Source: an uncultured Flavihumibacter sp.
GTDB lineage: Bacteria; Bacteroidota; Bacteroidia; Chitinophagales; Chitinophagaceae
DNA length: 64,000 nt
NCBI GenBank assembly: GCA_964245425.1
Contig: CAXTMV010000001.1
Location: 13,979-77,978, forward strand
Direction of reading: 5' to 3'
The translations under genes were made by a program, and so were the position numbers. Under the pieces are notes generated by a model that was not told the origin of the DNA, did no database searches, and saw only the letters and a program-made list of their open reading frames with translations. Positions 6,886-63,316 of the stretch are shown here, piece after piece (position 1 is the first letter of the stretch; each line of letters begins with the position of its first letter).

Positions 6886-6887
6886 TC

Positions 6888-8978: not shown

Positions 8979-8985
8979 TATCCAT

Positions 8986-11568: not shown

Positions 11569-11579
11569 TTTTTTTGCTT

Positions 11580-33780: not shown

Positions 33781-33872
33781 AGCAATCGGCGTTAACAGGG
33801 TAATGCCAAAAACCGCTGATGGCCCTGTGCAAGTATTTTTTGCGTGTCGCGCACTTTTTTCTCCTTGTTCCC

Positions 33873-34343
33873 TTAGCGCATTGCCCTGTCGCGTTTCACT
33901 TTTTCCCAGTATTTTTTTGCCACGTACAGCATACCGAACGACTCGCCATGTTCTTTGCCCAGGTGTTTATGGTGCATTTTATGCGCCCAACGGACGGTTT
34001 TTATATACCTGTTTTTAGATCGGGTGAACCATTTTATCCGTTGGTGAATGATAACATCGTGTACCAGGAAATATGCGGCGCCATAAGCCATTACGCCAAA
34101 ACCAACTGCCTGCAGCCAGTAGATGCCGCGCAGTGTACCAAAGAGAATGCTGCAAAAACTGGGTATGGCAAAAATGATAAAAAAAGCATCGTTGCGTTCA
34201 AAAAACCCGGGCCCCTTTTTATGGTGATCTTCGTGCAGGTACCAAAGAAAGCCGTGCATAACAAATTTATGGGTGGCCCATGACACGCCCTCCATAAAAA
34301 GGAAAACGCCTGTTACAATGCCTGTATATGCTAACCAATGCAT
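33873..34343 (-). CDS. crtZ: beta-carotene hydroxylase
   Basis: Histidine boxes HKFVMH, HEDHH and HKMHH of the fatty-acid hydroxylase superfamily. I chose the start at M27 (ATG at 34343) because it removes the 68-nt overlap with idi that the longest ORF (start 34421) creates. Confidence 0.8.
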   Translation of the reverse strand: MHWLAYTGIVTGVFLFMEGVSWATHKFVMHGFLWYLHEDHHKKGPGFFERNDAFFIIFAIPSFCSILFGTLRGIYWLQAVGFGVMAYGAAYFLVHDVIIHQRIKWFTRSKNRYIKTVRWAHKMHHKHLGKEHGESFGMLYVAKKYWEKVKRDRAMR

Positions 34344-34353
34344 TAGTTTTAAT

Positions 34354-34896
34354 TTATGCGCATTTTTTTTCAAAAGACTGCGTCTCCATCCATTTTTCAA
34401 TGATAGGGAAAGCGATGGCAAACCAGCTGCTGTATTTAGCCGGGTGACTTTGCAGTGATTCCCGGATGGCCGTCAGGCTTTTATAACAATAATCATTCAC
34501 TTCTTCCGGCGCAGGATGTATAGGGCCGTCGTACACGCCCGCATATACATGATCAAATTCATATTCCGTTAAACCGTTTTCAAAAGCAGAACGATAGGTG
34601 AATGCAAACGCCTTTTCGAGGCCCGTATCAAATCCCATTTCGTACTGTAGCCTGGCTGCGGCGGCCGCCTGCGTATCCTCTCCCGGTCTGGGATGGCTGC
34701 AACAAGCATTGGTCCACAACCCCGCGCTGTGGTATTTTTTAAGTGAACGCTGCTGCAACAGCATTTCTCCGCGGCTGTTAAAAATAAACACGCTGAAAGC
34801 GCGGTGCAGCAATGCCTTGCGGTGGGCTTCCATTTTCTCCATGGTGCCTACGGGTTCGTCCTGCTCGTTTACCAGTATGATGTCGTGTATCAGCAA
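34354..34896 (-). CDS. idi: isopentenyl-diphosphate delta-isomerase, type 1 (Nudix)
   Basis: Motifs HRAFSVFIFN, WTNACCSHP and EYEFDHV are typical of type-1 IDI. Confidence 0.85.
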   Translation of the reverse strand: MLIHDIILVNEQDEPVGTMEKMEAHRKALLHRAFSVFIFNSRGEMLLQQRSLKKYHSAGLWTNACCSHPRPGEDTQAAAAARLQYEMGFDTGLEKAFAFTYRSAFENGLTEYEFDHVYAGVYDGPIHPAPEEVNDYCYKSLTAIRESLQSHPAKYSSWFAIAFPIIEKWMETQSFEKKCA

Positions 34897-34959
34897 TGTT
34901 TGTTTATTTAAGCAAATGTAAGGATTAGTTGATGGGTTGACCAGTTGATTGGTAAGGTA

Positions 34960-35817
34960 TTATCCTGCAGCGCGGATCAGGTTCAGCTGGTTTTTCAATC
35001 CTGCCCGGATAATGATCAGTGCCTTGCTGTAATTGGGTATGCGTATCCGTTCTTCCATGATGCGGGCGGGTTTTACCTTCCTGATTTTTTTAAATAAAGA
35101 CAGGTAATATTTGTATGCCACATACACGCCGAACCGCGCTTTGATGGGCAGGTGCAGGATACCGGGAAAGGCGCTGGTAAAATCCTGCTGGATATCTGCT
35201 TCGATTTTCAATTTTTCGCTGCTGGTAAAATTTTCAAAATCGCAACCGGGAAAGTATACCCTGTTCAGCCCATCATAATCTGCTTTTACATCGCGGAGAA
35301 AATTTACTTTTTGAAAGGCTGCTCCCAGCGAGCGGGCCGGTGCTTTTAATTTTTCATATTTTTCTGCATTGCCTTCGCAGAAAATATACAGGCACATCAG
35401 CCCAACGGCTTCTGCCGACCCATAAATATATTCCATGTATCCATCGTAGTGATAGGCGCGCTTGTTCAAATCCATTTCCATGCTGCAGAAAAAAGCGTCA
35501 ATGAGTCCAAGGTCTATTCCATATTCATTTACGGTTTTCTGAAAGCTGTTCAATATGGGGTTAAGGCTGATACCACGCCTGATGGAAGCATGGGTTTCCT
35601 GCTTGAACTGTTCCAGCAGTACAGCCTTGTCAAACGCATGAAAGCTGTCTACAATCTCGTCGGCAAACCGTACAAATCCATAGATATTAAATATGGGTTG
35701 CCGCAGATCACGGTGCAGCAGCTTAATCGCGGAAAAAAACGAAGTGCTGTATTGTTCTGTTGTATCACGGCTGCAACGTTCGCTCAGTGTATGAAACAGG
35801 TGCATCATGGTATACAA
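34960..35817 (-). CDS. crtB: phytoene synthase
   Basis: Squalene/phytoene synthase motifs YGFVRFADEIVD and LGAAFQKVNFLRDV. Confidence 0.9.
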   Translation of the reverse strand: MYTMMHLFHTLSERCSRDTTEQYSTSFFSAIKLLHRDLRQPIFNIYGFVRFADEIVDSFHAFDKAVLLEQFKQETHASIRRGISLNPILNSFQKTVNEYGIDLGLIDAFFCSMEMDLNKRAYHYDGYMEYIYGSAEAVGLMCLYIFCEGNAEKYEKLKAPARSLGAAFQKVNFLRDVKADYDGLNRVYFPGCDFENFTSSEKLKIEADIQQDFTSAFPGILHLPIKARFGVYVAYKYYLSLFKKIRKVKPARIMEERIRIPNYSKALIIIRAGLKNQLNLIRAAG

Positions 35818-35915
35818 TTTTTTTTTGGCGCTGGGCAGTTAATACTGTAAAATATATTTTTTGTAAACCTCATTCATTATCTGTTTTGTATAATCCTGCT
35901 TTTACCTGCGCGGGC

Positions 35916-37412
35916 TTAAACAATACTTTGAAATCCTTCATTACCAAAATGCTTCAGCACTTCGGCCGCTACTACTTCACCACTGATCAGTGATGGCGGC
36001 ACACCGGGGCCGGGAACGGTTAGCTGGCCGGTATAGAAAAGGTTTTTTACCTTTTTGCTTCTGCAGGATGGTTTCAGCATAGCCGTTTGCAAAAGGGTGT
36101 TGGCCAGGCCGTATGCATTACCTTTAAAAGAATTGTATTCGCTGATAAAATCGCTTATGGCAAAAGACTGCTGGTATATTACATGCGGCCTTATCGCTTC
36201 GCCCAACCGATGTTCCAGCCGATCAGTAATGACGTTAAAATAATGCGCCCGCATTTCTTCGTCGTCGCCCTGCAAACCGGCTGCTACCGGTACCAGTAAA
36301 AATAAATTCTCACAACCTACGGGCGCAACATGGTTATCGGTGACCGAAGTGGCGCTTGCATAGAACATAGGCGCTGCAGGCCATTTTTTTGTATCATAAA
36401 TTTCGCTGGCATGCGCTTCAAAAGAAGTATCAAAGAACAGGGAATGGTGGCGGATGCCCTTGAGTCGTTTGTCTAATCCTATATAATACAGGAGGCAGGA
36501 AGGCGCCATTACCCTTTTATTCCACCAGCTTTCGCTGTAAGACCGAAAAGACGCCGGCAACCAATTGGTTTCTGCATGATGGTAATCGGCCCCCACAATT
36601 ACCACTTCGGCTGTCCATGCGGCATTTCTTGTGATCACTTCAGTAGCCAGGCCATCGTTGATGCCTATACGCTGCACATCTTCGTTGAAGTAAAACTGCA
36701 CCCCTTTTTCAAGGGCAATATTGTACATGGCGGTTACTACACTGTACATGCCGCCATCGGGGTACCAGGTTCCACCTGCTATATCTGCATGATTCATTAA
36801 ACTATATAAGGCCGGAATGTCTTTCGGCAAAGCGCCTAAAAACAACACCGGGAATTCAAGCAATTGCCTGAGCCTGGGATGCTGAAAATATTTGCGCACA
36901 TGCCGGCTGAAAGAGGTAAATACATCCAGTTTGTAAACGCCTTTCAAAAAACCCGCATCCAGGAATTCTATGTAGGACTGGCCGGGTTTAAAAACCAGTT
37001 TCTCCATTCCAATCTTATATTTATAGGCTGCTTCTGCGAGAAAAGCCTCCAGCCTTTTACCAGCACCGGGCTCCAGACTTTCAAATAATTCCTTAACAGC
37101 CGTTTCGCCTGCAGGAATATCTGTGTAATCCTCTTTCCAATATACGCGGTAGGAAGGGTCCAGTCTTTTGAGTGGGTACAGATCTGTCCTCTTTTTTCCA
37201 AACTGGGTAAAATATCTCTCAAAGATATCGGGCATCCAGTACCAGCTGGGGCCCATATCAAATACAAAACCGTTTGCCTTCAGCTGCCGCGCCCGGCCAC
37301 CCGGGCCACTGTGTTTTTCCAGGACAGTAACCTGCCAGCCTGCTTTCGCCATAAAGGAAGCGGCAGAAAGTCCGGCAAAACCGCTACCGATGACAATCAC
37401 TTTTTTTGACAA
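35916..37412 (-). CDS. crtI: phytoene desaturase
   Basis: N-terminus KKVIVIGSGFAGLSAA, 498 aa, CrtI-like C-terminal motif FYTGQLTVPGPGVP. Confidence 0.9.
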   Translation of the reverse strand: MSKKVIVIGSGFAGLSAASFMAKAGWQVTVLEKHSGPGGRARQLKANGFVFDMGPSWYWMPDIFERYFTQFGKKRTDLYPLKRLDPSYRVYWKEDYTDIPAGETAVKELFESLEPGAGKRLEAFLAEAAYKYKIGMEKLVFKPGQSYIEFLDAGFLKGVYKLDVFTSFSRHVRKYFQHPRLRQLLEFPVLFLGALPKDIPALYSLMNHADIAGGTWYPDGGMYSVVTAMYNIALEKGVQFYFNEDVQRIGINDGLATEVITRNAAWTAEVVIVGADYHHAETNWLPASFRSYSESWWNKRVMAPSCLLYYIGLDKRLKGIRHHSLFFDTSFEAHASEIYDTKKWPAAPMFYASATSVTDNHVAPVGCENLFLLVPVAAGLQGDDEEMRAHYFNVITDRLEHRLGEAIRPHVIYQQSFAISDFISEYNSFKGNAYGLANTLLQTAMLKPSCRSKKVKNLFYTGQLTVPGPGVPPSLISGEVVAAEVLKHFGNEGFQSIV

Positions 37413-37431
37413 AGCCTTTTTTCGGATATGA

Positions 37432-37932
37432 TTAAAACCGTTGAACTTGCGCTTTCAACAACTTGCGGGCAAAATGTATCCTGCTTTTAATGGTACCCAG
37501 CGGCTCACCCAGCATCTGGGCTATTTCATGGTATTTATACCCATCGAAATACAACAGGAAAGGATTCCGGAAAATATCGGGCAGGTTATGAACAGCCTGC
37601 TGTATATCCTTGATTTTTAATATACTCTCCGCCGCATTGGCGGTACTCACCTGGGCCTGGTTTAATAAAAAATCATTGGGCGTATTGTCAAAAATGGTGT
37701 TCTGCTTTGCCTTTCTGCGGTAGTTGTTGATAAATATATTCCGCATGATGGTGTACAACCATGCTTTTATATTGGTACCAACATTGTACTTGTCTTTATT
37801 GGCCAATGCCCGGTATAAGGTTTCCTGGTATAAATCCTGTGCTGCATCAGAATCTCTCGTAAGGGTGATTGCGAAAGGTTTTAAAAATTCCGAATTGTTA
37901 ACCAGCATTTGACTGAAATCTATTGATGCCAT
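37432..37932 (-). CDS. ECF-type RNA polymerase sigma-70 factor
   Basis: Region 2 (AAQDLYQETLYRAL) and region 4.2 (YHEIAQMLGEPLGTIKSRIHFARKLL). The gene ends 19 nt upstream of crtI, so it is probably co-transcribed. Confidence 0.85.
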   Translation of the reverse strand: MASIDFSQMLVNNSEFLKPFAITLTRDSDAAQDLYQETLYRALANKDKYNVGTNIKAWLYTIMRNIFINNYRRKAKQNTIFDNTPNDFLLNQAQVSTANAAESILKIKDIQQAVHNLPDIFRNPFLLYFDGYKYHEIAQMLGEPLGTIKSRIHFARKLLKAQVQRF

Positions 37933-37935
37933 AAC

Positions 37936-37976
37936 AATTGTGTTTAAGTATTAGGATAACAAAATTAAACACAATT
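37936..37976 (-). promoter_or_regulatory. 12-bp perfect inverted repeat overlapping a putative Bacteroidota-type promoter of the sigma/crt operon (candidate operator)
   Basis: Arm aattgtgtttaa (37936-37947) and arm ttaaacacaatt (37965-37976) are separated by a 17-nt spacer. On the minus strand, TAATTTTG (37960-37967) fits the TAnnTTTG -7 box and overlaps the right arm. A TTG lies about 21 nt further upstream. The left arm ends 3 nt from the ATG. Confidence 0.45.
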
Positions 37977-38154
37977 AAGGAGAAAAACCAAATTTAAGAT
38001 CTTAAGAATGCGTTAACAGCCGATTTTGGTTATTCTTATTTTGTATTTAATAGTGTAATGACAGCAGATCGGTACAAATTACATACCGCAGTAGCGTGGA
38101 TGCATTATTGTCATTAAACCTGTTATAAGCGGTAATAAAACCGGCGGCAGAGGA

Positions 38155-39033
38155 TCAAATGCCGGATATATAGTCAATCACCTCCTGCAAAGAGGTCTTA
38201 AAGCTGACTTTTGCCGGTAATTGTTTTTTGTAGGATCCGGTGAGTTGGCCAGAAATAACGAGGGGAAAATTTTCCAGCCGGGCCTGTACCTGGTTAAGGA
38301 ACTTCTCAAAATTGAAATTGCCGGTGGCGGATGTAAGATGGGTATACAGGTAATCGGGCTTTTTTAGCTTACTGACATATTCAATATCTGCGGCCGGCAC
38401 ATTGGCACCCAGGTACAGCGTTTTGATACCCCTTGTCTTTAGCAGGTAAGAAATATACAGCAGGCCCAGCTCATGGTGTTCTCCCTCTGGCAGGAAAAGC
38501 AATACCAGTTTTTGCGTGCTGATATGGGTAAACACTGTTTCAATACCTGCAATCAGTTTTTGCCGGATGATATTGGTAACCAGGTGCTCCTGCGCAGGGT
38601 TGATATGATTGGCCAGCCATAATATACCGATTCTTTCAAGAAAAGGAAAAATAACCTGTGTAATGGCTTTGTCGAATCCCCGCACCGTAATATAATTATC
38701 CATTACTTCTTCAAAACGATCCATGTTCATGTCTACCATGTACTGTATCATATCATTGATGATACGTTCCTGCTGGGCCTGCGTATTGGAAAGGGAAACT
38801 ATCTTGTCGTGTATCTCTACCGGGCTCATTTTATTAATGTGCGAGATCTTGAACCCGTATTTATTGAGGAGGGAGATATTGAGTATCTTTTTTAATTCTT
38901 CATTGGTATAATAGCGGATATTGGTTTGGGTGCGTTGCGGTTTAATAAAAGCATAGCGCTGTTCCCAGATGCGGATGGTATGGGCCTTAATGCCTGACAG
39001 GTTTTCAAGATCTTTTATAGTAAACGCGTTCAT
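38155..39033 (-). CDS. MerR-family regulator with a B12-binding domain (CarH/LitR-type light-responsive repressor)
   Basis: - MerR HTH: FTIKDLENLSGIKAHTIRIWEQRY.
- W-x9-EH motif: W139...E149-H150.
- E-x-H-x-x-G cobalamin lower-ligand motif: EHHELG, aa 185-190. Confidence 0.75.
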   Translation of the reverse strand: MNAFTIKDLENLSGIKAHTIRIWEQRYAFIKPQRTQTNIRYYTNEELKKILNISLLNKYGFKISHINKMSPVEIHDKIVSLSNTQAQQERIINDMIQYMVDMNMDRFEEVMDNYITVRGFDKAITQVIFPFLERIGILWLANHINPAQEHLVTNIIRQKLIAGIETVFTHISTQKLVLLFLPEGEHHELGLLYISYLLKTRGIKTLYLGANVPAADIEYVSKLKKPDYLYTHLTSATGNFNFEKFLNQVQARLENFPLVISGQLTGSYKKQLPAKVSFKTSLQEVIDYISGI

Positions 39034-40553: not shown

Positions 40554-41294
40554 TTACAACGTAAGTAAAGGATTCTGCAACTTGCCGCCGGCCAGTAATT
40601 GCTGCACAACCGGCATCATGTTCCTTCCAGCCCGGAGCGCCTCCAGGTGACGCTGGTGATGCAAATCGGTGCCCACAAAATCTATGTATTGCCTGTTTAC
40701 CAACCAGGCGGCCAGGTCTTGCACCACTTTGCCATAATAGCCGGCTACCGAAAGCAGGTTGAGCTGAAAAAAGCAGCCCATATTTTTAAAATCGTCGTAA
40801 ACGGCTCGGTTACCAGAAAAATAAGTGTACCGTTCCGGGTGCGCCAGCACGGGCTCATATCCTTTTATCTGCAGGTTAAATAATTGTTCCTTCAGATCAA
40901 AAGGCGCTGCTACAAAAGAAAATTCCACCAGTACTTTTTTACCGGTTATCGTAAGCAATGGTTTTTCGTTATTTACCAGGCCGTCAAAATAGTCGTCCAT
41001 AAAATATTCTGCTGCAATACGCATATTGTTATGCTGCGTGCTGTTATGCTGCAGGTTTTTCAATGCGGTATCAATTGTACCAGGCGTATTTTTATACAGA
41101 TCCCACATAATATGCGGCGTGGCAATGAACTGCCGGAAGCCAAGATCTTCCAGCCCTTTTTTCAGTTCCGCCGAAGCAGCAGTGTCTGCTGCGCCATCGT
41201 CAATACCGGGCAACAGGTGTGAATGCATGTCTGTTACCAGGTCGCTGAAATTGACAGGCGAAGCAGGATATTTTCTTTTAAAGATGGAGAACAT
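40554..41294 (-). CDS. PHP-family protein-tyrosine phosphatase (CpsB/CapC/YwqE type)
   Basis: The DMHSHLLPGIDDGA N-terminal motif and HPERY motif are characteristic of CpsB-type phosphatases. Confidence 0.85.
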   Translation of the reverse strand: MFSIFKRKYPASPVNFSDLVTDMHSHLLPGIDDGAADTAASAELKKGLEDLGFRQFIATPHIMWDLYKNTPGTIDTALKNLQHNSTQHNNMRIAAEYFMDDYFDGLVNNEKPLLTITGKKVLVEFSFVAAPFDLKEQLFNLQIKGYEPVLAHPERYTYFSGNRAVYDDFKNMGCFFQLNLLSVAGYYGKVVQDLAAWLVNRQYIDFVGTDLHHQRHLEALRAGRNMMPVVQQLLAGGKLQNPLLTL

Positions 41295-42040
41295 TATTTC
41301 ATCAGGTATTGTGGAATTTTTCTCAGCGGCTTCAGATAAACGGTAAAAAAATGCGGGCGTTTGTTGTTTAATTTCCAGGCCTTGGCATCTTCCCTGTTTG
41401 CCCGGATGCGGTTGCGGAGCGAGGCATTGCTGATACCCCCCGAACGCATTTTTACCAACACTTCCGGTATATAGGCAGCATGAAAATGATGCCGGTATAA
41501 AATGCGCAGCATCATTTCATAATCAGCGGCGCTTTTTAGCTCGGTGTTGAACAGACCTACTTTTTCATATACCGATCTTCGCACAAAAAAAGTAGGATGC
41601 GGCGGCATCCATCCATATAAAAAATTCCGGTGGTTGAATTTGCCGGCCTTCCAGGTGCGGAGGATCTTCGACAGGTTGTGCTGCTGCACATATTGAAGAT
41701 CGCCATATACACAATGAACGGCGGGATCACGAAAAGCGGCCGCCACTTTTTTTAATACGGAATCACTTGCATATACATCGTCGCTGTTCAGGATGCCCAC
41801 TACATCGCCGGTTACCATGGCAAACCCTTTGTTCATGGCATAGTAAAGGCCGTTGTCTTTTTCCGATACCCATTTACTGATATGTGCATGCGACTGAACG
41901 ATGCCCATTGTGCCATCGGTGGAAGCGCCATCTACCAGGATATGTTCCAGGTCTTCGTACGCCTGGCGCTGCACACTGTCGATGGTATCTTTCAGCGTTG
42001 CAGCGCTGTTATACGATACGGTAATAATGGATATACGCAT
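41294..42040 (-). CDS. family 2 glycosyltransferase
   Basis: Motif MRISIITVSYNS...VDGASTDGT. I chose the start at ATG 42040, which avoids an overlap with the upstream gene (the longest ORF starts at 42124). Confidence 0.8.
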   Translation of the reverse strand: MRISIITVSYNSAATLKDTIDSVQRQAYEDLEHILVDGASTDGTMGIVQSHAHISKWVSEKDNGLYYAMNKGFAMVTGDVVGILNSDDVYASDSVLKKVAAAFRDPAVHCVYGDLQYVQQHNLSKILRTWKAGKFNHRNFLYGWMPPHPTFFVRRSVYEKVGLFNTELKSAADYEMMLRILYRHHFHAAYIPEVLVKMRSGGISNASLRNRIRANREDAKAWKLNNKRPHFFTVYLKPLRKIPQYLMK

Positions 42041-42054
42041 ACAATGGCCGGCAC

Positions 42055-42780
42055 TTATTTTTTTCCCGCTATAAGAAAGAGGGCAATGATCGATAGCAGC
42101 AGTGAAGTTAATACAACTAACCATACAGCCGGCATACCTGTTGGGGTCTTTGCAGCTATGGGTGTGAGGACGGTTGCCGGCGCGGGTGGTAACACCGGTA
42201 CCGCTACGGCAACTGCCATGCCATTGGTATGTGAAACAGACAAATGAAAAGCGGCATGAAAGGGCCGGCCTTCCGGCTGGTGCTGAACACCCAGCTGGTT
42301 GAACGGCGTGGCCTTAAACCGGTTGTCTGCTTTTACCATTGCTTCCTTGGCAGCAAACAATCCCGCAAATGAAGCGTATGAATCGGGCTGCAGGATGCAA
42401 TAAGCAATCTCTGTTGCCGAAAAGTTCATGGTATAAAAAGGATCTTCCCGGAAATCTGCAGTAACAGGCATGGCGCTTACCATTTCCATATCAATGCCGA
42501 TAGCAGTTCCTGCAGGTCTATTGACCGGGCCGGAGGCTGCATACACTTCCGCCGGTTGTACCGTACCGTTAGATGCGCCCGTGCGCTGTAAAAGGTCGCC
42601 AAACGTGCGTACCTGCTGGTAATCTTTTACAGTAATGCCTTCTGCAGCCAGTTTTGCATACATGCGGTGCAATAAAATGGAACTGCTTACCGCTGATCGA
42701 TCGATGACAGTGGCCGGCAGTAATTGTTCGGGTGGTATCTTTAAGAAAATACCCAGTATTTCTTTTATTTTTTCCTCCAT
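42055..42780 (-). CDS. fusion protein: carrier-protein-like domain, AcpS-type 4'-phosphopantetheinyl transferase and a C-terminal TM anchor
   Basis: - aa 1-70 are ACP/PCP-like (RSAVSSSILLHRMYAKL).
- aa 90-195 carry AcpS motifs (IGIDMEMV, LFAAKEAMVKA, SVSHTNGMAVAVAV).
- The last ~25 aa (AVWLVVLTSLLLSIIALFLIAGKK) are hydrophobic. Confidence 0.65.
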   Translation of the reverse strand: MEEKIKEILGIFLKIPPEQLLPATVIDRSAVSSSILLHRMYAKLAAEGITVKDYQQVRTFGDLLQRTGASNGTVQPAEVYAASGPVNRPAGTAIGIDMEMVSAMPVTADFREDPFYTMNFSATEIAYCILQPDSYASFAGLFAAKEAMVKADNRFKATPFNQLGVQHQPEGRPFHAAFHLSVSHTNGMAVAVAVPVLPPAPATVLTPIAAKTPTGMPAVWLVVLTSLLLSIIALFLIAGKK

Positions 42781-42782
42781 AA

Positions 42783-44099
42783 TTAAAATCCTTTAAAACA
42801 ACGCTGGCAAATATGGCCATCGCGGCCATCGGGTTGTACACAGGCCACGAACCCCACATCTGCTAAATCTTCTGCCAGGGTGGTATAACATTTAAAACAA
42901 TGGATCGCCCGGGTGCGGTAACGGCTGTCTGCCCGGTAAGATTCTATTCGTTCTTTCAGCTCCTGCAGAAAACGGGCCACTAGTTTACCCTCTGTTACCC
43001 GGTGATCGAAAGTAATACTAACGGTACAGCGGTTCAATTGATGGTCAATGGCCGCAATGCCCAGGATAGCGCTGTTCATCATATTTACCAGTGGCCGGAA
43101 AAAACTGACGCCTTCTGCCGATAAATCCGTGATGGTAAAACTGATATCGGTCAGATCGGTGATAGCCAGTTTATCATCCAGGTATTTTTCAGACAGCTGC
43201 AGGATGCCGGCTTCTATCTCTGCCAGTTTCATGTCGTTTGTACGGGGCAGCTTTAATACTTTCAGGCCTTTATCGATGTCGATGGCAAAACCAATATTCA
43301 CTTCTTTATAAACAGCTGTTTCCGCACCGGTGAAATACGCATTGAGCGGCGAATATTTTTTCAGCAGGCGCGCTGTTTCATATATTACCAGGGGCAATAG
43401 AGAATCTTTCAGGTAGGCCATTGATGGGTTCACCTGCTCAAAAAGACCGCCTGTTTCAATAAAAGTATTAATGGTGCTGGTTAAGCCGCCGGATTGTACT
43501 TCCGACAAATATTCTATTTCCCTTCTTTTGCCGGAAGATAATTTTTCAACGATGAACCTATTGGGATCTGCAACGGGTGCTGCTTTGGCTTTAACCGGCT
43601 GGGGCGCCGTGTTGTTGCCAGCGGCCTGAACGGGCTGGCCAATGCCCAGCAGCGTTTCCACTTCTGCCTTGCTCACAAAATCACGCCCGCTGAACAATGC
43701 ACGACTGGCCCCTGTGCTCAGCAATAACTTTTCAGCAGCCGCAGAAAACAGCGTATCACCATTCCATTGCGCGGGGCTTGCGCTGGCTGCTGCCGGTACG
43801 GTTGCCCGCTGGCCATTCAGTACCGGCTTGCCGTTAGAAAGCGTTTCCAGTTCTGATGCATCGGTAAAAATTTTGGCCACCAGTTCATTTACCTCATAGT
43901 CTTTTCCTGTTTCGCAGAAGTACTGCACGTATCCTTCCGCTTCTGCTTCCACCTCGTAGGTTGTTTTAGAGGTTTCAAATACCATCAGCTGGTCGCCCTT
44001 TTTTACTTTTTGCCCGCTGGTAAACGAAATGGCCACCACCGTAAGACTGGTGTCATTTACCGCCAGCAGGGGCACTTTTATTTCCTGTAAGACTGCCAT
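42783..44099 (-). CDS. 2-oxoacid dehydrogenase E2-type acyltransferase with a lipoyl domain and an extra C-terminal 4-Cys tail
   Basis: - Lipoyl-lysine motif: VFETSKTTYEVEA.
- PSBD-like segment: SAAAEKLLLSTGAS...KAEVETLL.
- Catalytic motif: FDHRVTEG.
- C-terminal tail: CFKC...x27...CQRC. Confidence 0.8.
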   Translation of the reverse strand: MAVLQEIKVPLLAVNDTSLTVVAISFTSGQKVKKGDQLMVFETSKTTYEVEAEAEGYVQYFCETGKDYEVNELVAKIFTDASELETLSNGKPVLNGQRATVPAAASASPAQWNGDTLFSAAAEKLLLSTGASRALFSGRDFVSKAEVETLLGIGQPVQAAGNNTAPQPVKAKAAPVADPNRFIVEKLSSGKRREIEYLSEVQSGGLTSTINTFIETGGLFEQVNPSMAYLKDSLLPLVIYETARLLKKYSPLNAYFTGAETAVYKEVNIGFAIDIDKGLKVLKLPRTNDMKLAEIEAGILQLSEKYLDDKLAITDLTDISFTITDLSAEGVSFFRPLVNMMNSAILGIAAIDHQLNRCTVSITFDHRVTEGKLVARFLQELKERIESYRADSRYRTRAIHCFKCYTTLAEDLADVGFVACVQPDGRDGHICQRCFKGF

Positions 44100-46045
44100 T
44101 AGCTGAAAGTTTCATTTATTTCACGGATGATCCTGTTTTTTCCGGGCACTACTATGTTCTCCAGCGATTTCACAGAAGGTATGGGCACCGGGTAGGCCGC
44201 AATTCTTTTTACTTTGATGCCGGTGCCGGCTATTTCTGCTACGGCAGCCAGCAGCTCGGCGCCGATACCTGCAAATGCAGTGCCTTCTTCGATTACCAGC
44301 AGCCGGCCGGTTTTCTGCGCCGAGACAGCCACCAGGTCTGCCGGCAATTGCGATATCAGGCAGGGCACAATCAGTTCCGGCTTAAAATCTGTCTCCACAA
44401 AAATATCTTCCAGTGCGGCCGCTGTTAAATCGGCCATGCCGCCATATGCAACGATGGTAAGGGTAGGTTGCGACAGGGCGGGGCGTATACGCACCACCGG
44501 AAAAACATCGTGGTTGCGTTCGTACACAAAATGGGCCGATGCCTGCTGCATTATTTTTTTTCCATAATCCGTTTTGTTTTCAATAACCAGTACGGGGTGC
44601 TTTTCTTCGTACACAGATTCATACACAACAGCGGGGTGTATAAAGGTATTTAAGGCAATTGTTTTTATATTATCGATACCCACCAGGAATTTATCGAGTG
44701 TCTGCGAATGGGTGGGACCATAGCCCCTGCGGGCGCCCATGGGCGTGCGTATTACCACCGGGCAGTTCACCTTTTTATTAAACATGTGGTGAAACTTGGA
44801 AGCATGGTTCACTATCTGGTCAAAGGCCAGGGTCATGAAATCGCCAAACATGATTTCAGCAAAAGGCTTGAAACCATTCAATGCCAGCCCGTTCGATATG
44901 CCGGTGATAGCAGATTCGGAAATGGGGGTAGAGAACACCTGGCCGGGCCGCAGCTGCGATAATTCTTTGGTAACCTTAAAAGCCCCGCCATAGGGTGAGA
45001 GGATATCTTCTCCCAAAAAAACGGTGCTGGCATCCTGTTCTATCTTATCCCTGAAAAAACGATTGATCAGTTCTACCTGTCTTTTATTAACAGGTTCCAG
45101 GGCTGCCCAGGTATTATCGGTTGTGTATGGCCGGTATTCATAATAGGCGGCAATGGGCAAATCTTCTTCCTGCAGGATTTCTTCCACCATATGATCAATC
45201 TCTTCGCTGATGGCCTCCTGGTATATTTTGTAATACGCGGGCGATTCCTGTTCAAATACCTGCAAAAAATCTTTTTCGCGGAAGCTGTTCACTACGGCGG
45301 GATCGCGGTCATCGTCTCCCTTTGAATGCGCATTCAGGCGGTAGGTTTCTACCAGGAAAAAAGCCGGCCTGGTTTCTGTTCGCACATAATCGATGGCACT
45401 CTTTGCATCGCCTATCAGCGCGGCAGGATCCCAGGTATCGCCCTTAAATGTTTTTATACCGAATGCCGCGGCCCTGGCACGGATATCGCCCGCCAGGTTA
45501 ATGTGCTGGGGGGTAGACTGTGCAAAAAAATTGTTTTCGCAAACGATCAGCAGGGGCACTTCCCATTTGGAAATGATATTCATGGTTTCATACAGGGCGC
45601 CTTCACCCAGGGTGCCATCGCCGATATACACCACGCCGATAGCACCGTTTTGCCGCAGTTTGTTGCCCAGTGCGTACCCGGCCGCTACCGGAACAATGCC
45701 ACCCTGTATGCCATTCGAGAAAAAATTATTGTTGCAAAGGTGCTGGCTGCTGCCAATACCACCACTGGTACCGGAGGCTTTTCCCAGCAGTTCCGCCAGC
45801 AGCCCCCTCGTATCGCCTGTAAAAGCTATGTAATGGCCGTGACAACGATGGTTGGAAAAAACAAAATCCTTTTTTTTAAGCTGGCCGGCGAAGGCGATAG
45901 CAGAAAATTCCTGTCCCACGCAGGTATGAACGGTGCCGTTCAATTTCCCTTCAGAGAACAGCTGCAGGAATTTCTCTTCCACCTTCCGTATGCGGATGGC
46001 TTCTTTGATCTGTCGGTGAGATATATTGAGTTTTGCTGCGTACAT
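44099..46045 (-). CDS. TPP-dependent 2-oxoacid dehydrogenase E1 component, fused alpha-beta subunits
   Basis: The alpha part carries the TPP motif YIGDGTLGEGALYETMNIISKWEVPLLIVCENN. The beta part carries FLGEDILSPYGGAFKVTKEL...STPISESAITG. Single 648-aa ORF. Confidence 0.85.
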   Translation of the reverse strand: MYAAKLNISHRQIKEAIRIRKVEEKFLQLFSEGKLNGTVHTCVGQEFSAIAFAGQLKKKDFVFSNHRCHGHYIAFTGDTRGLLAELLGKASGTSGGIGSSQHLCNNNFFSNGIQGGIVPVAAGYALGNKLRQNGAIGVVYIGDGTLGEGALYETMNIISKWEVPLLIVCENNFFAQSTPQHINLAGDIRARAAAFGIKTFKGDTWDPAALIGDAKSAIDYVRTETRPAFFLVETYRLNAHSKGDDDRDPAVVNSFREKDFLQVFEQESPAYYKIYQEAISEEIDHMVEEILQEEDLPIAAYYEYRPYTTDNTWAALEPVNKRQVELINRFFRDKIEQDASTVFLGEDILSPYGGAFKVTKELSQLRPGQVFSTPISESAITGISNGLALNGFKPFAEIMFGDFMTLAFDQIVNHASKFHHMFNKKVNCPVVIRTPMGARRGYGPTHSQTLDKFLVGIDNIKTIALNTFIHPAVVYESVYEEKHPVLVIENKTDYGKKIMQQASAHFVYERNHDVFPVVRIRPALSQPTLTIVAYGGMADLTAAALEDIFVETDFKPELIVPCLISQLPADLVAVSAQKTGRLLVIEEGTAFAGIGAELLAAVAEIAGTGIKVKRIAAYPVPIPSVKSLENIVVPGKNRIIREINETFS

Positions 46046-46084: not shown

Positions 46085-46639
46085 TTAATAAATTTTTCTT
46101 TCTATGACCGGTATGGCCGGGTTGCCTTTATAAATAATATAAGGCTGCAGGTTTTTTTCTGCTACCGAATTCATACCAAGTATGCTATGCGAGCCGGCAG
46201 TAACACCGCCAAAAACAACGGCCCTGGCACCAATCCAAACCCCGTCTTCCAGCACCACCGGCAGTGAGATGAAATCGAATTGTTCTTTTGTATGGTCATG
46301 GCTGCCGGTCAACAGCAAAGCACCCTGAGAAATCGTAACATGGCTGCCGATCAGTACTTCAGACAGGTTGTCGATCCACACGTCTTCTCCAATCCAGGCA
46401 TGGTCGCCGATGTTTAGTTTCCAGGGAAACTTGATATTAACACCGGGCTTTATCAGCACTCCCTTGCCCAGGGTGGCGCCAAAGGCCTTCAGAAAAAATA
46501 CTTTCAGCCCGGAAAAAATATTAAACGGGTTTTTAAAAAAAATAATATTCACCAGGTACCATAAAACCTGTTTGGGCTTTGAGGCACCAATTTGCAGGGT
46601 GGTACGATAGAGGCCGTTATTTACTTTTTTAACACTCAT
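46085..46639 (-). CDS. hexapeptide-repeat O-acetyltransferase (WcaF-like)
   Basis: WcaF-type N-terminus (LWYLVNIIFFKNPF...LKAFGATLGKGVLIKP) and left-handed beta-helix repeats. Confidence 0.8.
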   Translation of the reverse strand: MSVKKVNNGLYRTTLQIGASKPKQVLWYLVNIIFFKNPFNIFSGLKVFFLKAFGATLGKGVLIKPGVNIKFPWKLNIGDHAWIGEDVWIDNLSEVLIGSHVTISQGALLLTGSHDHTKEQFDFISLPVVLEDGVWIGARAVVFGGVTAGSHSILGMNSVAEKNLQPYIIYKGNPAIPVIERKIY

Positions 46640-47781
46640 GAAAACAATTGCAAATATTGTTGTTTTAAAGCAGGGTTGCCGATAAACTTACCGGCAAATT
46701 GCCAGGCTTGTTCGCAGCAGGCTGCAAAGGTAACCTGATTCCAGGCGGCAGCAGTTTCAAGGGCCGCCGTAAACGCGGTAACCTCATTCAATGGCAGGTC
46801 CCAACCCATTCCTTTTTCCCGGAGTTGCAGCCAGGGTGTCTGATCGCTGATCAATACAGGGCGGCCGGCCAGGAAGGCTTCAAAAATAGAATGTCCGAAA
46901 TTCTCGCCCCTGGTAGGCAATACAAATAAATGATTGTCTTGCAAAAGAGCCGGCAGTGCATGATTGGGCAAAGAGCCGTTGTACTGCACCTGTATATGGG
47001 CAGGCAAATCTGCCATGATTGATTGGCATTGTTGCCAGTAAGCCGCGTCTTCTATGGGACCAACAATCGTAAGCACAACGGCTGCCTGCACGGGGCGCAA
47101 TGCCTCCAGCAGGAACATTAGATTTTTAATGGGATGTACACGGGCAATGAATATGCATTTCAATTGCCCGGGCGTTTTGCTTCTGATGGAAAGGGCCAAT
47201 TGCCGGGTATTGGGCAAATCATCGGCTGTCAGCACTTCACTACCGGGAAAGAAATCCAGTATGGCGTTTTTCTCTCTTTCACTGGTGGCATGAAAGCGAA
47301 CTTTTTTGTGGATGCTCATCCACCTGAATAATTTCAGGAAAGGGCTTTTTTTATATGTTTTGATGGCCAGTGCGCTTTGGTACAGGGCACCGCGCGGACT
47401 TACCACTACCCGGCTGCTGATAATACCTTTCCATTTCAGCCACAGGGGATACACCACAAACCAGGGAGAAAAAAGGTGGTTCAGGTAAACAAAATCAGGC
47501 TGCAGGGTGGTGGTAACGGTCCTGATCTGTTTTGCGTTGAGTTTCTTTTTGCAGGCATAATATACCATGCAGCCGTCGTCTGCTGCTTTTATCCAGGTAT
47601 CGGTCACAACGCCTGCATAGGGTGTTGTTTCGCCCAGGTCGGTATCGGAGGTAAACACATAGATCGCGTAGTCTTCTTTCATCAGGTGAATAAAATTCAG
47701 GCAGGAGGTGACTGGCCCGCCGGCTTTATAACCGGGGCTGAACCAATCTATGAACAGTAGAATAACAGGTTTGGGAGCCAT
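46636..47781 (-). CDS. GT-B glycosyltransferase (GT4-like)
   Basis: C-terminal ENFGHSIFEAFLAGRPVLISD motif. I chose the start at ATG 47781, 2 nt after the upstream stop (the longest ORF starts at 47814). Confidence 0.8.
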   Translation of the reverse strand: MAPKPVILLFIDWFSPGYKAGGPVTSCLNFIHLMKEDYAIYVFTSDTDLGETTPYAGVVTDTWIKAADDGCMVYYACKKKLNAKQIRTVTTTLQPDFVYLNHLFSPWFVVYPLWLKWKGIISSRVVVSPRGALYQSALAIKTYKKSPFLKLFRWMSIHKKVRFHATSEREKNAILDFFPGSEVLTADDLPNTRQLALSIRSKTPGQLKCIFIARVHPIKNLMFLLEALRPVQAAVVLTIVGPIEDAAYWQQCQSIMADLPAHIQVQYNGSLPNHALPALLQDNHLFVLPTRGENFGHSIFEAFLAGRPVLISDQTPWLQLREKGMGWDLPLNEVTAFTAALETAAAWNQVTFAACCEQAWQFAGKFIGNPALKQQYLQLFS

Positions 47782-47783
47782 TT

Positions 47784-50108
47784 TTATTTTGTGAAACGGA
47801 TACTGGTATTGCAATCGCCGGCTGAAACCCGGGAAACAAGAATAGAAGAAGCACCGGACGGCGCAGCCAAAAATTTACGAGGCATCGCTTTGCGATCATC
47901 TGCCAGCATTTCAGGAAAATAATCATCCATTTTTACATTTCCCCTGCTGGTATCGTTAACAGTAAAAATATAATCGCATTTTTTATCGCCTGGTATAAAA
48001 CACTGCGTGTTAAGTCCGGCAGCTGCTACGCGGTAATTGGTCTGTGCTGTAAGAAATTTAAGCGGGTCAAGTGCAAAATAAAAATGAATATTCCAAAGCA
48101 ACAGGCTTAACTGGGGATTATTTTCCTGCACGCTGATGCCTCCCTGGAAGTACATATTTAACAAACTTATTTTACCTGCAAATCTATGAATGACCAATGT
48201 TGGCGTACTATCAGCTTTATTGGATGCTACCATTGCACCATCGATGGTTATTCTTCCGGTACCCGTAAAATCAAGTGGCTGGCGCATAGCTCCTTCCCAC
48301 CAGCAGTCTTTTACTACCGCCACGGCATTTTTATCAACGGCCAGCCCTGCAAACTGGGCACCAAAGCAATACAATGCCGCGGTACCTTTTCCTTGTTGCA
48401 CCAGCGGCCCGCCTGTTATTGTATTGCCATCAGAAAAGAAAGAATTGGATTCCTGTACATACAGGTAGTCTAAGCCATCGGCGGCAACAGCATGGTGAGA
48501 ATTCGTATACAGCTGCTCTACAAAAGCCTGTGAACCCGGCTGGTCAACATTGCTGCATTGAATGCCATCTGTGCCGTTCATTGTATTGGTAAAATCGCCC
48601 AGTTGCAGATCCCTGATGACTACTTTTGTGGGGCCCTTTACATTGATCAATGCCTTACCCTTCGGAAAGTTTGCGGAAGGAATCAGCATCGTTGCATGCA
48701 AAAAGCCTTCGCCGGTCATTTGAAGATCGGCGCCGGCCGGAATAGCCAATGGCTGATCAAGCATAAACCGGCCCTGGGGAAAATAAATAAGAGCCTTCCT
48801 GTCTTTTGATTGCATGGCCTGGTTGATCAGGTCCTGTATCGCCGCCGAACCCGATCCGGCGGGTACAGCAAAAAGGGCGCGTGTTACAGTAATGGGCATT
48901 TTTTCCTGGGCACTGGTAAAAGGCGTTTCATTCTTTTGTACGGAAATATCATTTTTGTCGCCATACGAAAACAGCGTGGAAGCCGGCCGGGTAAATTTGA
49001 CCACTTTGCTGTTCCGGTAATTGTTATTAATAGACAATACCTGCGAATGGCCACCCTCAAGACCACCTGTTTCTACAAAGCTGCTGACTGATTTTCCGCT
49101 TGATGAATCGAACTGGTTATCCAGCAGCGTAATTTTTCCGAGGTGATAAGAGATAATGGGTATTTCCTTGGGCGCAATGACCGTATTGCCCTGGAATATT
49201 CTTTTGAATGGGTTTGAACTGGCGCCCTGGTCGTAACAAAAATGGGTGGCATTTTCACTGTAACAGCCCCTTAATGAAATATAATAACTGTTTGTATTTT
49301 CCACATCCGAGTAACAGTTACTGAAATAGGAGCGGTAGACATGGTAATTACCCGAATTGCATTTTACACCGAAACTGCACTTGATAAACTTACAATCCCA
49401 GATCCAGTAATCCAGCGCATTGTATCCTTTTACCTGGATGCCGGTTTCGCAGTTATCAAAGACGCAACGGCGGATGGATACTTCAGCATCCATGGCACCT
49501 GTTCCTTCTCCCTGCACCGTTCCGCCACTGATACCGAATTTACAATTGCCTGTAAAAACATTGTCAGATATTTCTATGTTGGTGGGTGCCGAACTGCGGC
49601 TTCTCTCGTTGTTATCCTGATCTTTCCAGTGAATGCCCAATGCTTCCATATTCTTACGGCCATTGGCATTCCAGGTAATACGGCTTACCTTAAAATAGGC
49701 CGACCCGTTAGCGGTGAACATGGTATCGCTGTCGGCGCCTATCCATCGGATGCTCACCGAAGCCGGCGATTCACCGATAAGGCTTACGCCTATTTTACCT
49801 TTTAAGAGTAAGGTGGCGGAAATATTATACGTGCCGGCCGGCAGGTAAATAACTGCGTAGGCTTTTTTTTCCATATTGAAATGGGCCAGTGGCTGGCTCA
49901 GGGAGTCAAGGGCCTGCTGAATAGCCCTGGTATCATCTGTTATGCCATCTGCTTTTGCCTTGAACCTCGTTTTTACATTTGCCCAGCCCGGTAAAGGGCC
50001 ATTGAACTCTTCGAGCTGCTGCGAAAACAAGCCCTCAGCAACAAAACATAAGAATGCCATTATAATTGTCCCCGCAAAAAAACGGTTGGGCGATGGGTCA
50101 GTGTTCAT
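47784..50108 (-). CDS. right-handed beta-helix (pectate-lyase-superfamily) protein with an N-terminal signal/anchor
   Basis: The motif KADGITDDTRAIQQALD is typical of pectate-lyase-3-type domains. A second similar unit occurs around GSGSAAIQDLINQAMQ. Hydrophobic N-terminus: FFAGTIIMAFLCFVAEGLFS. Confidence 0.7.
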   Translation of the reverse strand: MNTDPSPNRFFAGTIIMAFLCFVAEGLFSQQLEEFNGPLPGWANVKTRFKAKADGITDDTRAIQQALDSLSQPLAHFNMEKKAYAVIYLPAGTYNISATLLLKGKIGVSLIGESPASVSIRWIGADSDTMFTANGSAYFKVSRITWNANGRKNMEALGIHWKDQDNNERSRSSAPTNIEISDNVFTGNCKFGISGGTVQGEGTGAMDAEVSIRRCVFDNCETGIQVKGYNALDYWIWDCKFIKCSFGVKCNSGNYHVYRSYFSNCYSDVENTNSYYISLRGCYSENATHFCYDQGASSNPFKRIFQGNTVIAPKEIPIISYHLGKITLLDNQFDSSSGKSVSSFVETGGLEGGHSQVLSINNNYRNSKVVKFTRPASTLFSYGDKNDISVQKNETPFTSAQEKMPITVTRALFAVPAGSGSAAIQDLINQAMQSKDRKALIYFPQGRFMLDQPLAIPAGADLQMTGEGFLHATMLIPSANFPKGKALINVKGPTKVVIRDLQLGDFTNTMNGTDGIQCSNVDQPGSQAFVEQLYTNSHHAVAADGLDYLYVQESNSFFSDGNTITGGPLVQQGKGTAALYCFGAQFAGLAVDKNAVAVVKDCWWEGAMRQPLDFTGTGRITIDGAMVASNKADSTPTLVIHRFAGKISLLNMYFQGGISVQENNPQLSLLLWNIHFYFALDPLKFLTAQTNYRVAAAGLNTQCFIPGDKKCDYIFTVNDTSRGNVKMDDYFPEMLADDRKAMPRKFLAAPSGASSILVSRVSAGDCNTSIRFTK

Positions 50109-62517: not shown

Positions 62518-62527
62518 CCAGGGCTTT

Positions 62528-63304: not shown

Positions 63305-63316
63305 GCTGACCCACCA

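Follow-up and report, generated by a model that had tools for sequence, protein, structure and literature searches.

A fused E1, lipoyl-E2 and carrier–PPTase cassette in a Bacteroidota polysaccharide locus as a probable acyl-loading system for glycan decoration

We analyzed a 64-kb stretch of DNA (64,000 nucleotides, hereafter the window) from an uncultured Flavihumibacter species of the Chitinophagaceae, in which three adjacent minus-strand genes lie within a polysaccharide locus. In the order of transcription these encode a fused α–β, thiamine diphosphate (ThDP)-dependent E1 (44099..46045, 648 aa), a lipoyl-E2 (42783..44099, 438 aa) and a predicted carrier domain fused to an AcpS-type 4′-phosphopantetheinyl transferase (PPTase) with a C-terminal membrane anchor (42055..42780, 241 aa). 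Our data suggest, with a probability that we put at roughly 0.6, that this cassette is a dedicated acyl-loading system for glycan decoration, similar to the Qnc, Nap, Ren and Scl systems of nonribosomal peptide synthetase (NRPS) and polyketide synthase (PKS) gene clusters but serving a polysaccharide pathway. The three open reading frames (ORFs) described in an initial annotation of this DNA were recovered at exactly the same positions and lengths, and the tight junctions that it reported were borne out when read from the sequence: the E1 and E2 genes overlap by one nucleotide (...CAGC TAATG GCA) and a gap of two nucleotides separates the E2 gene from the carrier–PPTase gene (TTT TAA TT ATG GAG).

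Both E1 subunits are contained, as had been proposed, in one 648-residue ORF. Pfam matches to E1_dh (residues 17–289, 1.7e-43), Transket_pyr (329–495, 1.4e-22) and Transketolase_C (526–639, 2e-15) delineate an α module (17–289), which is the ThDP-binding part, and a β module (329–495 plus 526–639), which is made up of the pyrimidine-binding and C-terminal parts; this is the composition of a Qnc/Nap/Scl/Ren-type E1. The key motifs are all intact, namely the ThDP motif G142-D-G...N172 (GDG...NN), His240 (in HSKGD), Glu377 (in PISE) and His446 (in THSQ). The resemblance to housekeeping enzymes is limited. The best NCBIfam score of the E1 was 196.9 bits, to the pyruvate dehydrogenase (PDH)-type E1α model TIGR03182, against a cut-off of 393.9, and that of the E2 was 110.2 against a cut-off of 449; across the PDH, 2-oxoglutarate dehydrogenase (OGDH) and acetoin dehydrogenase equivalogs, all scores came to approximately 25–50% of the cut-off. 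The closest solved structures are distant relatives for both enzymes, each E1 half scoring approximately 100 bits (human PDHA1, ~104 bits for the α half) and the E2 59 bits.

The E2 contains the lipoyl domain and DHRxxEG motif that were originally described. Pfam assigns the lipoyl domain (Biotin_lipoyl) to residues 6–77 (6e-9) and the acyltransferase catalytic domain (2-oxoacid_dh) to residues 222–388 (5e-34). The lipoyl lysine is Lys45 (nt 43965-43967, minus strand), located in the sequence ETSKT, while Thr324 lies in FTITDLS (starting at 321) and His366 in DHRVTEG (starting at 365). These three residues are invariant in 45 members of the E2 family, as would be expected of a Qnc/Nap/Scl/Ren-type E2. 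A segment resembling a peripheral subunit-binding domain (PSBD) at residues 117–151 (nt 43647-43751) had also been claimed. Pfam does not match this segment in the window E2; however, two tandem repeats of P0203, another protein of the family, align with it, and Pfam recognizes one of these repeats as E3_binding, so that the claim stands by homology through P0203. The C-terminus of the E2 (residues 400–438, nt 42786-42902) carries a Cys-rich tail, CFKC...ICQRC, in which C401, C404, C431 and C434 are arranged as in a zinc ribbon. This tail is conserved in 45 of the 45 family E2s, and the CxxC...CxxC pattern is present in 117 of the best 150 E2 cluster representatives. It is absent from RenI, from other E2s of the biosynthetic gene cluster (BGC) type and from a relative in which E2, carrier and PPTase form a single chain. 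Because this fused E2::carrier::PPTase protein has lost the tail, the data suggest, weakly, that the E2 tail normally docks the carrier–PPTase protein.

The cassette lacks a gene for E3, the dihydrolipoyl dehydrogenase, in keeping with the initial annotation: no CxxxxC redox-disulfide motif was found in the six frames of the window, no Pyr_redox_dim-type or dihydrolipoyl dehydrogenase protein among its scanned ORFs and no Pyr_redox-family (E3-type) gene in the called-gene tables of related loci. Since the PSBD-like segment is homologous to the P0203 repeats, one of which is an E3_binding match, an E3 supplied in trans could still dock on the E2 through this segment.

The third protein combines two predicted enzymatic and carrier functions with an anchor. 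Pfam detects ACPS at residues 93–176 (36.3 bits against a cut-off of 25, E 6e-9), and this match, the fold and the invariant residues define an AcpS-type PPTase domain at residues 93–195 (42196..42504, minus strand). The catalytic, Mg/CoA-binding residues Asp97 and Glu99 (in GIDME) and Lys145, Glu146 and Lys150 (in AAKEAMVKA) are invariant in the family alignment. A phmmer search of the PDB returned the PPT domain of yeast fatty acid synthase (2WAS) as its top match, and Foldseek returned 2WAT/2WAS and bacterial AcpS, with TM scores of about 0.7. The N-terminal 70 residues (42571..42780) are a well-supported prediction of an acyl carrier protein (ACP)-like carrier domain. An alignment of 20 family members reveals a conserved N-terminal block, IDRSAVxS-S34-ILLHRMYAKL (IDRSAVSS-S34-ILLHRMYAKL in the window), in which Ser34 (nt 42679-42681) is invariant. 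AlphaFold modeled the whole protein with a pLDDT of 85.7 and residues 1–72 alone with a pLDDT of 85.4, placing helices at residues 2–13, 34–46 and 60–69. When the isolated domain was compared to the PDB by Foldseek, carrier proteins or carrier domains of the acyl or peptidyl type made up the overwhelming majority of the 50 best matches (TM 0.64–0.78, rmsd about 2–3 Å), whether standalone or as a chain matched within a larger complex; the E-values were just 0.01–0.2 because the domain is short. Ser34 is located at the N-terminus of predicted helix II, which is the canonical phosphopantetheine site, and is therefore the predicted attachment residue. Following the PPTase domain and a Pro/Ala-rich linker, a predicted transmembrane helix (residues 217–239, 42064..42132) forms the C-terminal anchor. 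This hydrophobic segment is kept across the Bacteroidota family, and L056 and L058, the two stand-alone homologs from outside Bacteroidota that were inspected in sequence, do not have it. Neither the anchor nor the Cys-rich E2 tail figured in the initial annotation. The carrier motif, serine included, is conserved in the three distant homologs examined (3/3).

Conservation of the cassette and its acyltransferase partners

Clustered at 90%, the relatives of the carrier–PPTase fusion number 464; those with names are from Chitinophagaceae, and the closest relatives of the window protein are found in Chitinophagaceae metagenome-assembled genomes (MAGs). When one genome per species was taken, the fusion was present in 51 species, mostly Chitinophagaceae, which include Niastella, Puia, Ferruginibacter, Segetibacter, Pollutibacter and Pinibacter as well as one Bacteroidales MAG and one MAG labeled deltaproteobacterial. 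In the window, the E1 gene is preceded by a gene for a WcaF-family hexapeptide (left-handed β-helix) acyltransferase (46085..46639, minus strand; NCBIfam NF007797, 212.7 bits against a cut-off of 192) and this in turn by a Pfam-assigned family 4 glycosyltransferase (GT4) gene (46636..47814, minus strand), which is translationally coupled to the WcaF-like gene by an ATGA overlap and is conserved as part of the module in its Bacteroidota form. The order GT4, WcaF-like, an insert of 0–2.5 kb, E1, E2, carrier/PPTase was found in 43 of the 43 loci that extend far enough upstream; the remaining 12 fetched loci are cut by contig ends or, in L051, have the WcaF gene downstream. The spacing between E2 and carrier–PPTase genes is 0–10 nt in nearly every locus. 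The carrier/PPTase gene is usually followed by a family 2 glycosyltransferase (GT2) gene (nearly all Chitinophagaceae loci and also L060), with CpsB further on. In the Bacteroidales MAG (L054), the module is reduced to its minimum, GT4-GT4-WcaF-E1-E2-carrier/PPTase, flanked by unrelated genes.

The slot between the WcaF-like and E1 genes varies in content. An orthologous Acyl_transf_3 (AT3) gene occupies it in 14 loci (L017, L019, L022, L024, L030, L032, L033, L034, L036, L037, L046, L048, L049 and L055), with 50–65% identity among loci, and in L014 it holds (at about 2400–4730) a membrane-bound O-acyltransferase (MBOAT) gene and a gene for a 314-aa protein of no recognized kind. The window has no AT3 orthologue between WcaF and E1. 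Its own AT3, encoded at 57844-59004, shares only 25–29% identity with the AT3 proteins embedded in related cassettes. Two acyltransferases had been named at the outset as candidate users of the acyl donor: the WcaF-like enzyme is upheld by its association with the cassette, and the link to the AT3 at 57844-59004 is weak, as this protein is not orthologous to the cassette-embedded AT3, and it was down-weighted. Membrane acyltransferases might also draw on the acyl-carrier.

The cassette is not confined to Chitinophagaceae. An exhaustive HMMER search with the E2 retrieved 383 cluster representatives (50% identity) at E ≤ 1e-30, so that the family comprises at least 383 clusters, and these span at least eight phyla. 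Named members come from Magnetococcales, Planctomycetota, Candidatus Velthaea, Desulfobacterales, Omnitrophota, Pelagicoccus (Verrucomicrobiota), SAR324 and Fibrobacterota, and always carry generic names, such as "2-oxo acid dehydrogenase subunit E2", the carrier–PPTase protein being called "holo-ACP synthase". Leptospira names were not returned in a second protein search, and a possible occurrence of PDH-E1-like genes in Leptospira rfb loci was not substantiated; a neighbor in L070 belongs to the Pfam family "LIC12162".

Eleven contexts outside Chitinophagaceae were read. All 11 contain E1, E2 and an ACPS-domain protein in this order, and 10 have a hexapeptide acyltransferase gene at most one or two genes from the triad. 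Nine of the 11 lie amid glycan-biosynthesis genes (L057, L059 and L061 being exceptions or uncertain), in settings that range from a single adjoining glycosyltransferase to complete loci in which exosortase, Wzx/Wzy, KpsC/S-like, deoxysugar or CMP-sugar genes occur. The triad, first noticed in one locus, is thus a conserved glycan-locus cassette, with the gene order given above in 43/43 informative loci, and it also occurs in at least eight other phyla. The partner acyltransferases are not orthologous to one another, belonging to the WcaF family in Bacteroidota and being WbbJ/LacA/Maa-like elsewhere. Because of this, the association appears functional rather than inherited, and the proposal that the WcaF-like enzyme uses the donor is favored, by association, from 10/11 distant contexts and non-orthologous subfamilies. 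The triad of L061 adjoins a gene for a chorismate-binding enzyme and its E1 pairs with RenH (89% bootstrap); L061 is possibly an intermediate between glycan-type and natural-product-type cassettes.

Gene fusions within the E2 clade connect E2 and carrier physically. In P0181, encoded in L057, lipoyl-E2, carrier and PPTase form a single chain of 625 aa, and P0215 (834 aa, from a JGI metagenome) joins a lipoyl-E2 to a PP-binding domain (Pfam 1.6e-10) and a sulfotransferase. Coupling of E2 to carrier is supported because these two fusions arose independently in the same E2 clade. Another protein of this clade, P0200 (496 aa), joins a lipoyl-E2 to a carboxymuconolactone-decarboxylase-like domain. 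On the L057 contig (Logan SRR22388066, 8067-13115), the E1 gene, the E2::carrier::PPTase fusion and a gene for a 370-aa hexapeptide-like protein lie on an apparent conjugative element (TraH, TraF), beside genes of Lamassu-like type (LmuB_C, AAA_23). The cassette may spread by horizontal transfer.

A proposed acyl-loading route and its alternatives

To place the E1 and E2 among known enzymes, both were searched against 72,556 plasmids. The top E1 match was RenH from the renieramycin cluster of Candidatus Endohaliclona (45% identity over 99% of the length, 553–555 bits), which is a fused α–β E1 too. At E ≤ 1e-20 the E2 matched RenI and no other protein (29% identity, 162–164 bits), and the two have the lipoyl motif FETSKT in common; RenJ, which adjoins RenI, showed no similarity to the carrier–PPTase protein. 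The next E1 matches (381–405 bits) were in Streptomyces and Paenibacillus NRPS/PKS clusters ordered ACP-E1α-E1β-E2, and generic aco/pdh enzymes scored 245–336 bits. In neighbor-joining trees (E1, 628 columns; E2, 360 columns; four outgroup enzymes), glycan-type and BGC-type enzymes formed one clade with a bootstrap of 100 for both E1 and E2, to the exclusion of Priestia pdhAB-E2-lpdA, Caballeronia acoABC and the Sphingobium and Rhizobium E1 proteins, and the acyltransferase-linked glycan-type sequences formed a subclade with 100% support. The window E1 and E2 thus group with RenH/RenI and the NRPS/PKS-cluster pairs and apart from pdh/aco enzymes, as judged against these four outgroups.

Residues that distinguish this clade were also evident in the E1. 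Fifteen positions are invariant within the clade, glycan-type and BGC-type enzymes alike, and different in all outgroups; for instance, GGSMH is replaced by GSSQH and AAQHSQ by GPTHSQ, three residues are deleted after His102, and position 114 is Gln. Close to the ThDP site, the clade carries polar replacements at three positions (Gln101 for Met, Gln114 for Val and Thr445 for Gln), which the BGC-type enzymes have as well. This residue analysis yielded clade signatures only and no substrate assignment. RenH and RenI have been assigned, by homology to Qcn7/Qcn9, to conversion of a ketose sugar to a glycolyl unit (PMC13249901). The analogy to Qnc-type carrier loading drawn in the initial annotation is therefore supported by the RenH/RenI homology and the joint clade, while the chemistry is inferred; the link to Qnc itself is a prediction that runs through RenH/RenI and the ACP-E1α-E1β-E2 cassettes in Streptomyces and Paenibacillus BGCs.

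These observations can be combined in a model. The fused E1 would form a two-carbon or other short ThDP adduct, which, by homology to RenH/Qnc-type enzymes, would most likely be dihydroxyethyl-ThDP from a ketose phosphate, or else hydroxyalkyl-ThDP from a 2-oxoacid. E1 would then reductively acylate the lipoyl group on Lys45 of the E2, and the E2 catalytic domain, with His366, would transfer this group not to CoA but to the thiol of the phosphopantetheine arm borne by Ser34 of the carrier. The AcpS-type PPTase fused to the carrier would convert it to the holo form, and in Bacteroidota the C-terminal helix would hold it at the inner membrane; the zinc-ribbon tail of the E2 may serve to dock the carrier–PPTase protein. 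The WcaF-family hexapeptide acyltransferase would take the acyl-S-carrier and place the acyl group on a sugar of the repeat unit under construction, to whose assembly the flanking GT4 and GT2 would contribute. A housekeeping E3 would re-oxidize the dihydrolipoamide, perhaps docked on the PSBD-like segment. By analogy, the acyl group may be glycolyl, a tentative choice that we hold at somewhat below even odds; acetyl, propionyl or another short acyl group is possible. A ketose-derived glycolyl unit is favored because of the RenH homology and the polar clade-specific E1 residues. A broader proposal, that a widespread route in many phyla leads from a ketose phosphate C2 unit through glycolyl on lipoamide and a self-priming carrier to O- or N-glycolyl groups that hexapeptide acyltransferases install on surface glycans, is more speculative again.

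The nature of the donor is where the most serious alternative arises. In this alternative, which we consider unlikely, the architecture is the same and the acyl group comes from oxidative decarboxylation of a 2-oxoacid, be it pyruvate, 2-oxobutyrate, hydroxypyruvate or a branched one, so that acetyl, propionyl, glycolyl or isobutyryl groups would reach the glycan by way of the carrier. It has a precedent in the pepteridine cluster of Photorhabdus, in which an E1-like protein and the E2-T-C fusion Plu2796 were proposed to prime a carrier arm in place of CoA, with 2-oxobutyrate and pyruvate as proposed donors, and in which E3 is likewise absent from the cluster and a host E3 was proposed (PMC5384830). 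The E1 α half also scores best against PDH-type E1α proteins (TIGR03182, 197 bits; human PDHA1, about 104), and the catalytic His240 and His446 typical of 2-oxoacid E1 enzymes are conserved. By contrast, RenH is by far the closest annotated relative, at 553 bits compared to 245–336 for aco/pdh enzymes, and the polar residues Gln101, Gln114 and Thr445 are held in common with BGC-type enzymes assigned to ketose-derived C2 units. Moreover, a dedicated machine for acetyl groups seems wasteful because acetyl-CoA is abundant.

A second alternative, which we regard as improbable, separates the two halves of the cassette: E1 and E2 would act as a 2-oxoacid dehydrogenase reserved for this pathway, supplying the WcaF-like enzyme with acyl-CoA, and the carrier–PPTase protein would act elsewhere, for example in AT3 or MBOAT feeding or in lipid-anchor priming. 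Canonical E2 enzymes do transfer to CoA and WcaF-family enzymes do use acyl-CoA; in addition, an AT3 orthologue lies between WcaF and E1 in the 14 loci described above and an MBOAT gene in one, and the MBOAT protein DltB takes its substrate from the carrier protein DltC. However, E2 and carrier are fused in two independent relatives, their genes lie 0–10 nt apart in nearly every locus, the whole clade, NRPS/PKS members included, is carrier-associated, and AT3 and MBOAT are missing from most cassettes.

PDH-E1-like proteins have been implicated in the formation of two-carbon branched sugars, and the E1 could in principle be a sugar-branching enzyme of the AviB1/AviB2 or YerE kind that adds a two-carbon branch to a keto-sugar nucleotide, with E2 and carrier as accessories. 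Some distant contexts do contain deoxysugar and C-methyltransferase genes (L056), yet such a reaction needs no lipoyl-E2, carrier or PPTase, all of which are strictly co-inherited with the E1; the E2 lipoyl Lys and catalytic His are invariant, and no 4,6-dehydratase or keto-sugar genes adjoin the cassette in the window. We therefore find this explanation very improbable. Finally, a 2-oxoacid or acetoin dehydrogenase of ordinary catabolic or housekeeping function, placed by chance in a polysaccharide locus, would have the Pfam domains of PDH, branched-chain 2-oxoacid dehydrogenase (BCKDH) and acetoin dehydrogenase, as observed, but is dismissed, being contradicted by the equivalog scores (25–50% of cut-off), the missing E3, the glycan-gene synteny kept across phyla, the position of E1 and E2 apart from pdh/aco enzymes in the trees, and the presence in the cassette of the unusual E2 zinc-ribbon tail and the fused carrier–PPTase.

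Loading of a dedicated carrier for glycan decoration is thus the reading that we favor, because of domain integrity, homology, the gene fusions and synteny. Several points weigh against it. The carrier domain gave no Pfam PP-binding (PF00550) match even at E = 10, the carrier family profile reached the PDB at an E-value of about 1 only, and hhalign matched helix I alone between this domain and E. coli AcpP. The original description of the third gene as a carrier fused to its own PPTase therefore holds for the PPTase, by Pfam and fold, and for the carrier by predicted fold and not by sequence profiles; the carrier identification rests on predicted structure and a conserved serine, the fold itself being a prediction. 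The trees contain four outgroup enzymes only and are without Qnc/Nap, BCKDH and OGDH sequences, and the function of RenH and RenI was itself assigned by homology alone. To our knowledge, the characterized WcaF-family enzymes use acetyl-CoA, and the window WcaF sequence shows no sign of a switch to a protein-bound donor. In L061 (GCA_027426555.1, 2598-6890), the triad has neither a hexapeptide acyltransferase gene nor glycan genes nearby. Glycolyl esters and amides are barely documented in bacterial polysaccharides, with a possible N-glycolyl legionaminic acid being the only example in PMC5378307. Lastly, every chemical step of the model is one that we infer.

The surrounding polysaccharide locus

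The neighbors of the cassette are those originally reported, with glycosyltransferases, the WcaF-family acetyltransferase (212.7 bits) and the Acyl_transf_3 at 57844-59004. The same-strand locus comprises genes for the GT4, the WcaF-family acetyltransferase, the GT2, CpsB, a UDP-sugar dehydrogenase, a GT9, an FkbM methyltransferase, Acyl_transf_3, a GFO/IDH/MocA oxidoreductase and a WbuX/HisF/HisH-like trio. NRPS/PKS genes, to which the carriers of Qnc/Nap/Scl/Ren systems hand over, are absent from the locus.

Directly downstream of the carrier–PPTase gene lies the gene for a TuaG/WcaE-like GT2 (41294..42040, minus strand; Pfam and NCBIfam). Its longest ORF starts at 42124 and overlaps the carrier–PPTase gene by 70 nt; the true start is likely the ATG at 42040 (MRISIITVSYN...), which is located 15 nt past the carrier–PPTase stop and agrees with the start of homologs. 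On the other side of the cassette, a gene for a 774-aa protein with a pectate-lyase-like/RHGA-epimerase domain (47784-50108) overlaps the GT4 gene. The same protein recurs beside GT4 in L005, L006, L030, L032, L039 and L043 and downstream of the cassette in L020. Further along, at 61351-63934, are genes for a tRNA_Me_trans-like protein (a WbuX/PseA-type amidotransferase), a HisF-like and a HisH-like protein, a trio typical of acetamidino-sugar formation, and the locus continues past the end of the window.

The region directly downstream of the locus (32596-39033) contains genes for a LitR/CarH-like MerR/B12-binding regulator (38155-39033) and an ECF sigma factor (37432-37932), as well as the carotenoid genes for phytoene desaturase (35916-37412), phytoene synthase (34960-35817) and lycopene cyclase (32596-33780). 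The MerR gene holds the same position beside the locus in many Chitinophagaceae, a hint of light-linked regulation. Four very large plus-strand ORFs (1855, 696, 860 and 1148 aa) at 1318-15020 are unrelated to the cassette; the 696-aa ORF, the one of the four that was scanned, had no Pfam match.

Significance and comparison with known systems

Literature searches found no published description of the cassette in a glycan or polysaccharide context. Loading of a carrier by E1 and E2 is already known; what is new is the setting among glycan genes, the pairing with a hexapeptide acyltransferase, the fusion of carrier to PPTase (membrane-anchored in Bacteroidota) and the zinc-ribbon tail of the E2. 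Acyl decorations set the antigenicity, the phage and immune recognition and the physical properties of bacterial polysaccharides. The accepted donors for polysaccharide acylation are acyl-CoAs and, for AT3 enzymes, the accepted donor is acyl-CoA rather than ACP (PMC9558356). Known WcaF enzymes work on acetyl-CoA, so that a protein-bound donor for glycan acylation would be new.

If the favored reading is correct, the E1/E2-to-carrier logic of secondary metabolism has been recruited into glycan biosynthesis. The cassette would also provide a genetic basis for unusual hydroxyacyl substituents without known genes, for example in Tannerella, where nonulosonic acids bear N-glyceroyl and possibly N-glycolyl groups (PMC5378307). 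The combination of E1 fusion, zinc-ribbon-tailed E2, carrier::PPTase and hexapeptide acyltransferase, which is today generically annotated in hundreds of protein clusters across at least eight phyla, would then be a genomic signature. Should the more speculative glycolyl route also hold, no earlier acyl donor system for polysaccharide modification would have depended on lipoyl groups and a carrier protein, and the cassette could serve as a genetic marker by which acyl groups other than acetyl are predicted in glycans. For engineering, it offers compact, self-priming carrier-loading parts.

Among known systems, the cassette most resembles the glycolyl-ACP supply of Qnc/Nap type (QncN/QncL/QncM; Qcn7/Qcn9) and its homologs Scl and Ren. 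In common are the ThDP-dependent E1, the lipoyl-E2, a dedicated carrier, in scl a dedicated PPTase, and the lack of E3 in the cluster (PMC6335953, PMC13249901); the scleric acid cluster, for example, encodes an ACP, E1α, E1β, lipoyl-E2 and PPTase (SclQ1-4 and SclP; PMC6335953). The differences are clear. The window cassette is located in a polysaccharide locus and theirs in an NRPS/PKS cluster; its proposed acceptor enzyme is a hexapeptide acyltransferase and theirs an NRPS domain; and its carrier and AcpS-type PPTase form one protein, which in Bacteroidota is anchored to the membrane. With respect to Ren and the BGC-type systems, the window E2 also differs in its C-terminal zinc-ribbon tail, which RenI and BGC-type E2s do not have. 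The pepteridine system, compared here by its published description, is similarly proposed to prime a carrier directly, has no cluster E3 and fuses E2 to a carrier, as do P0181 and P0215. Its donors, by contrast, are 2-oxoacids, and its acceptor is a tetrahydropterin, reached by way of an NRPS condensation domain.

The PDH, BCKDH, OGDH and AcoABC complexes are similar in their ThDP E1 α and β subunits, lipoyl domain, PSBD-like segment and chloramphenicol acetyltransferase-like E2 with a DHR motif. The window cassette differs from them in that it has no E3, its E1 is fused, its proposed acceptor is a carrier protein and its enzymes fall in a separate clade. A further parallel is found in the cell envelope. 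LpxA and LpxD are hexapeptide-repeat acyltransferases that take acyl-ACP, a precedent for such a donor, and in both these enzymes and the D-alanylation by DltC/DltB, glycopolymers or glycolipids of the envelope receive an acyl or aminoacyl group from a phosphopantetheinyl carrier. In those systems, however, the carrier is loaded by the adenylating ligase DltA or by fatty-acid synthesis, whereas in the cassette described here loading would be carried out by a lipoyl-dependent E1/E2 pair.

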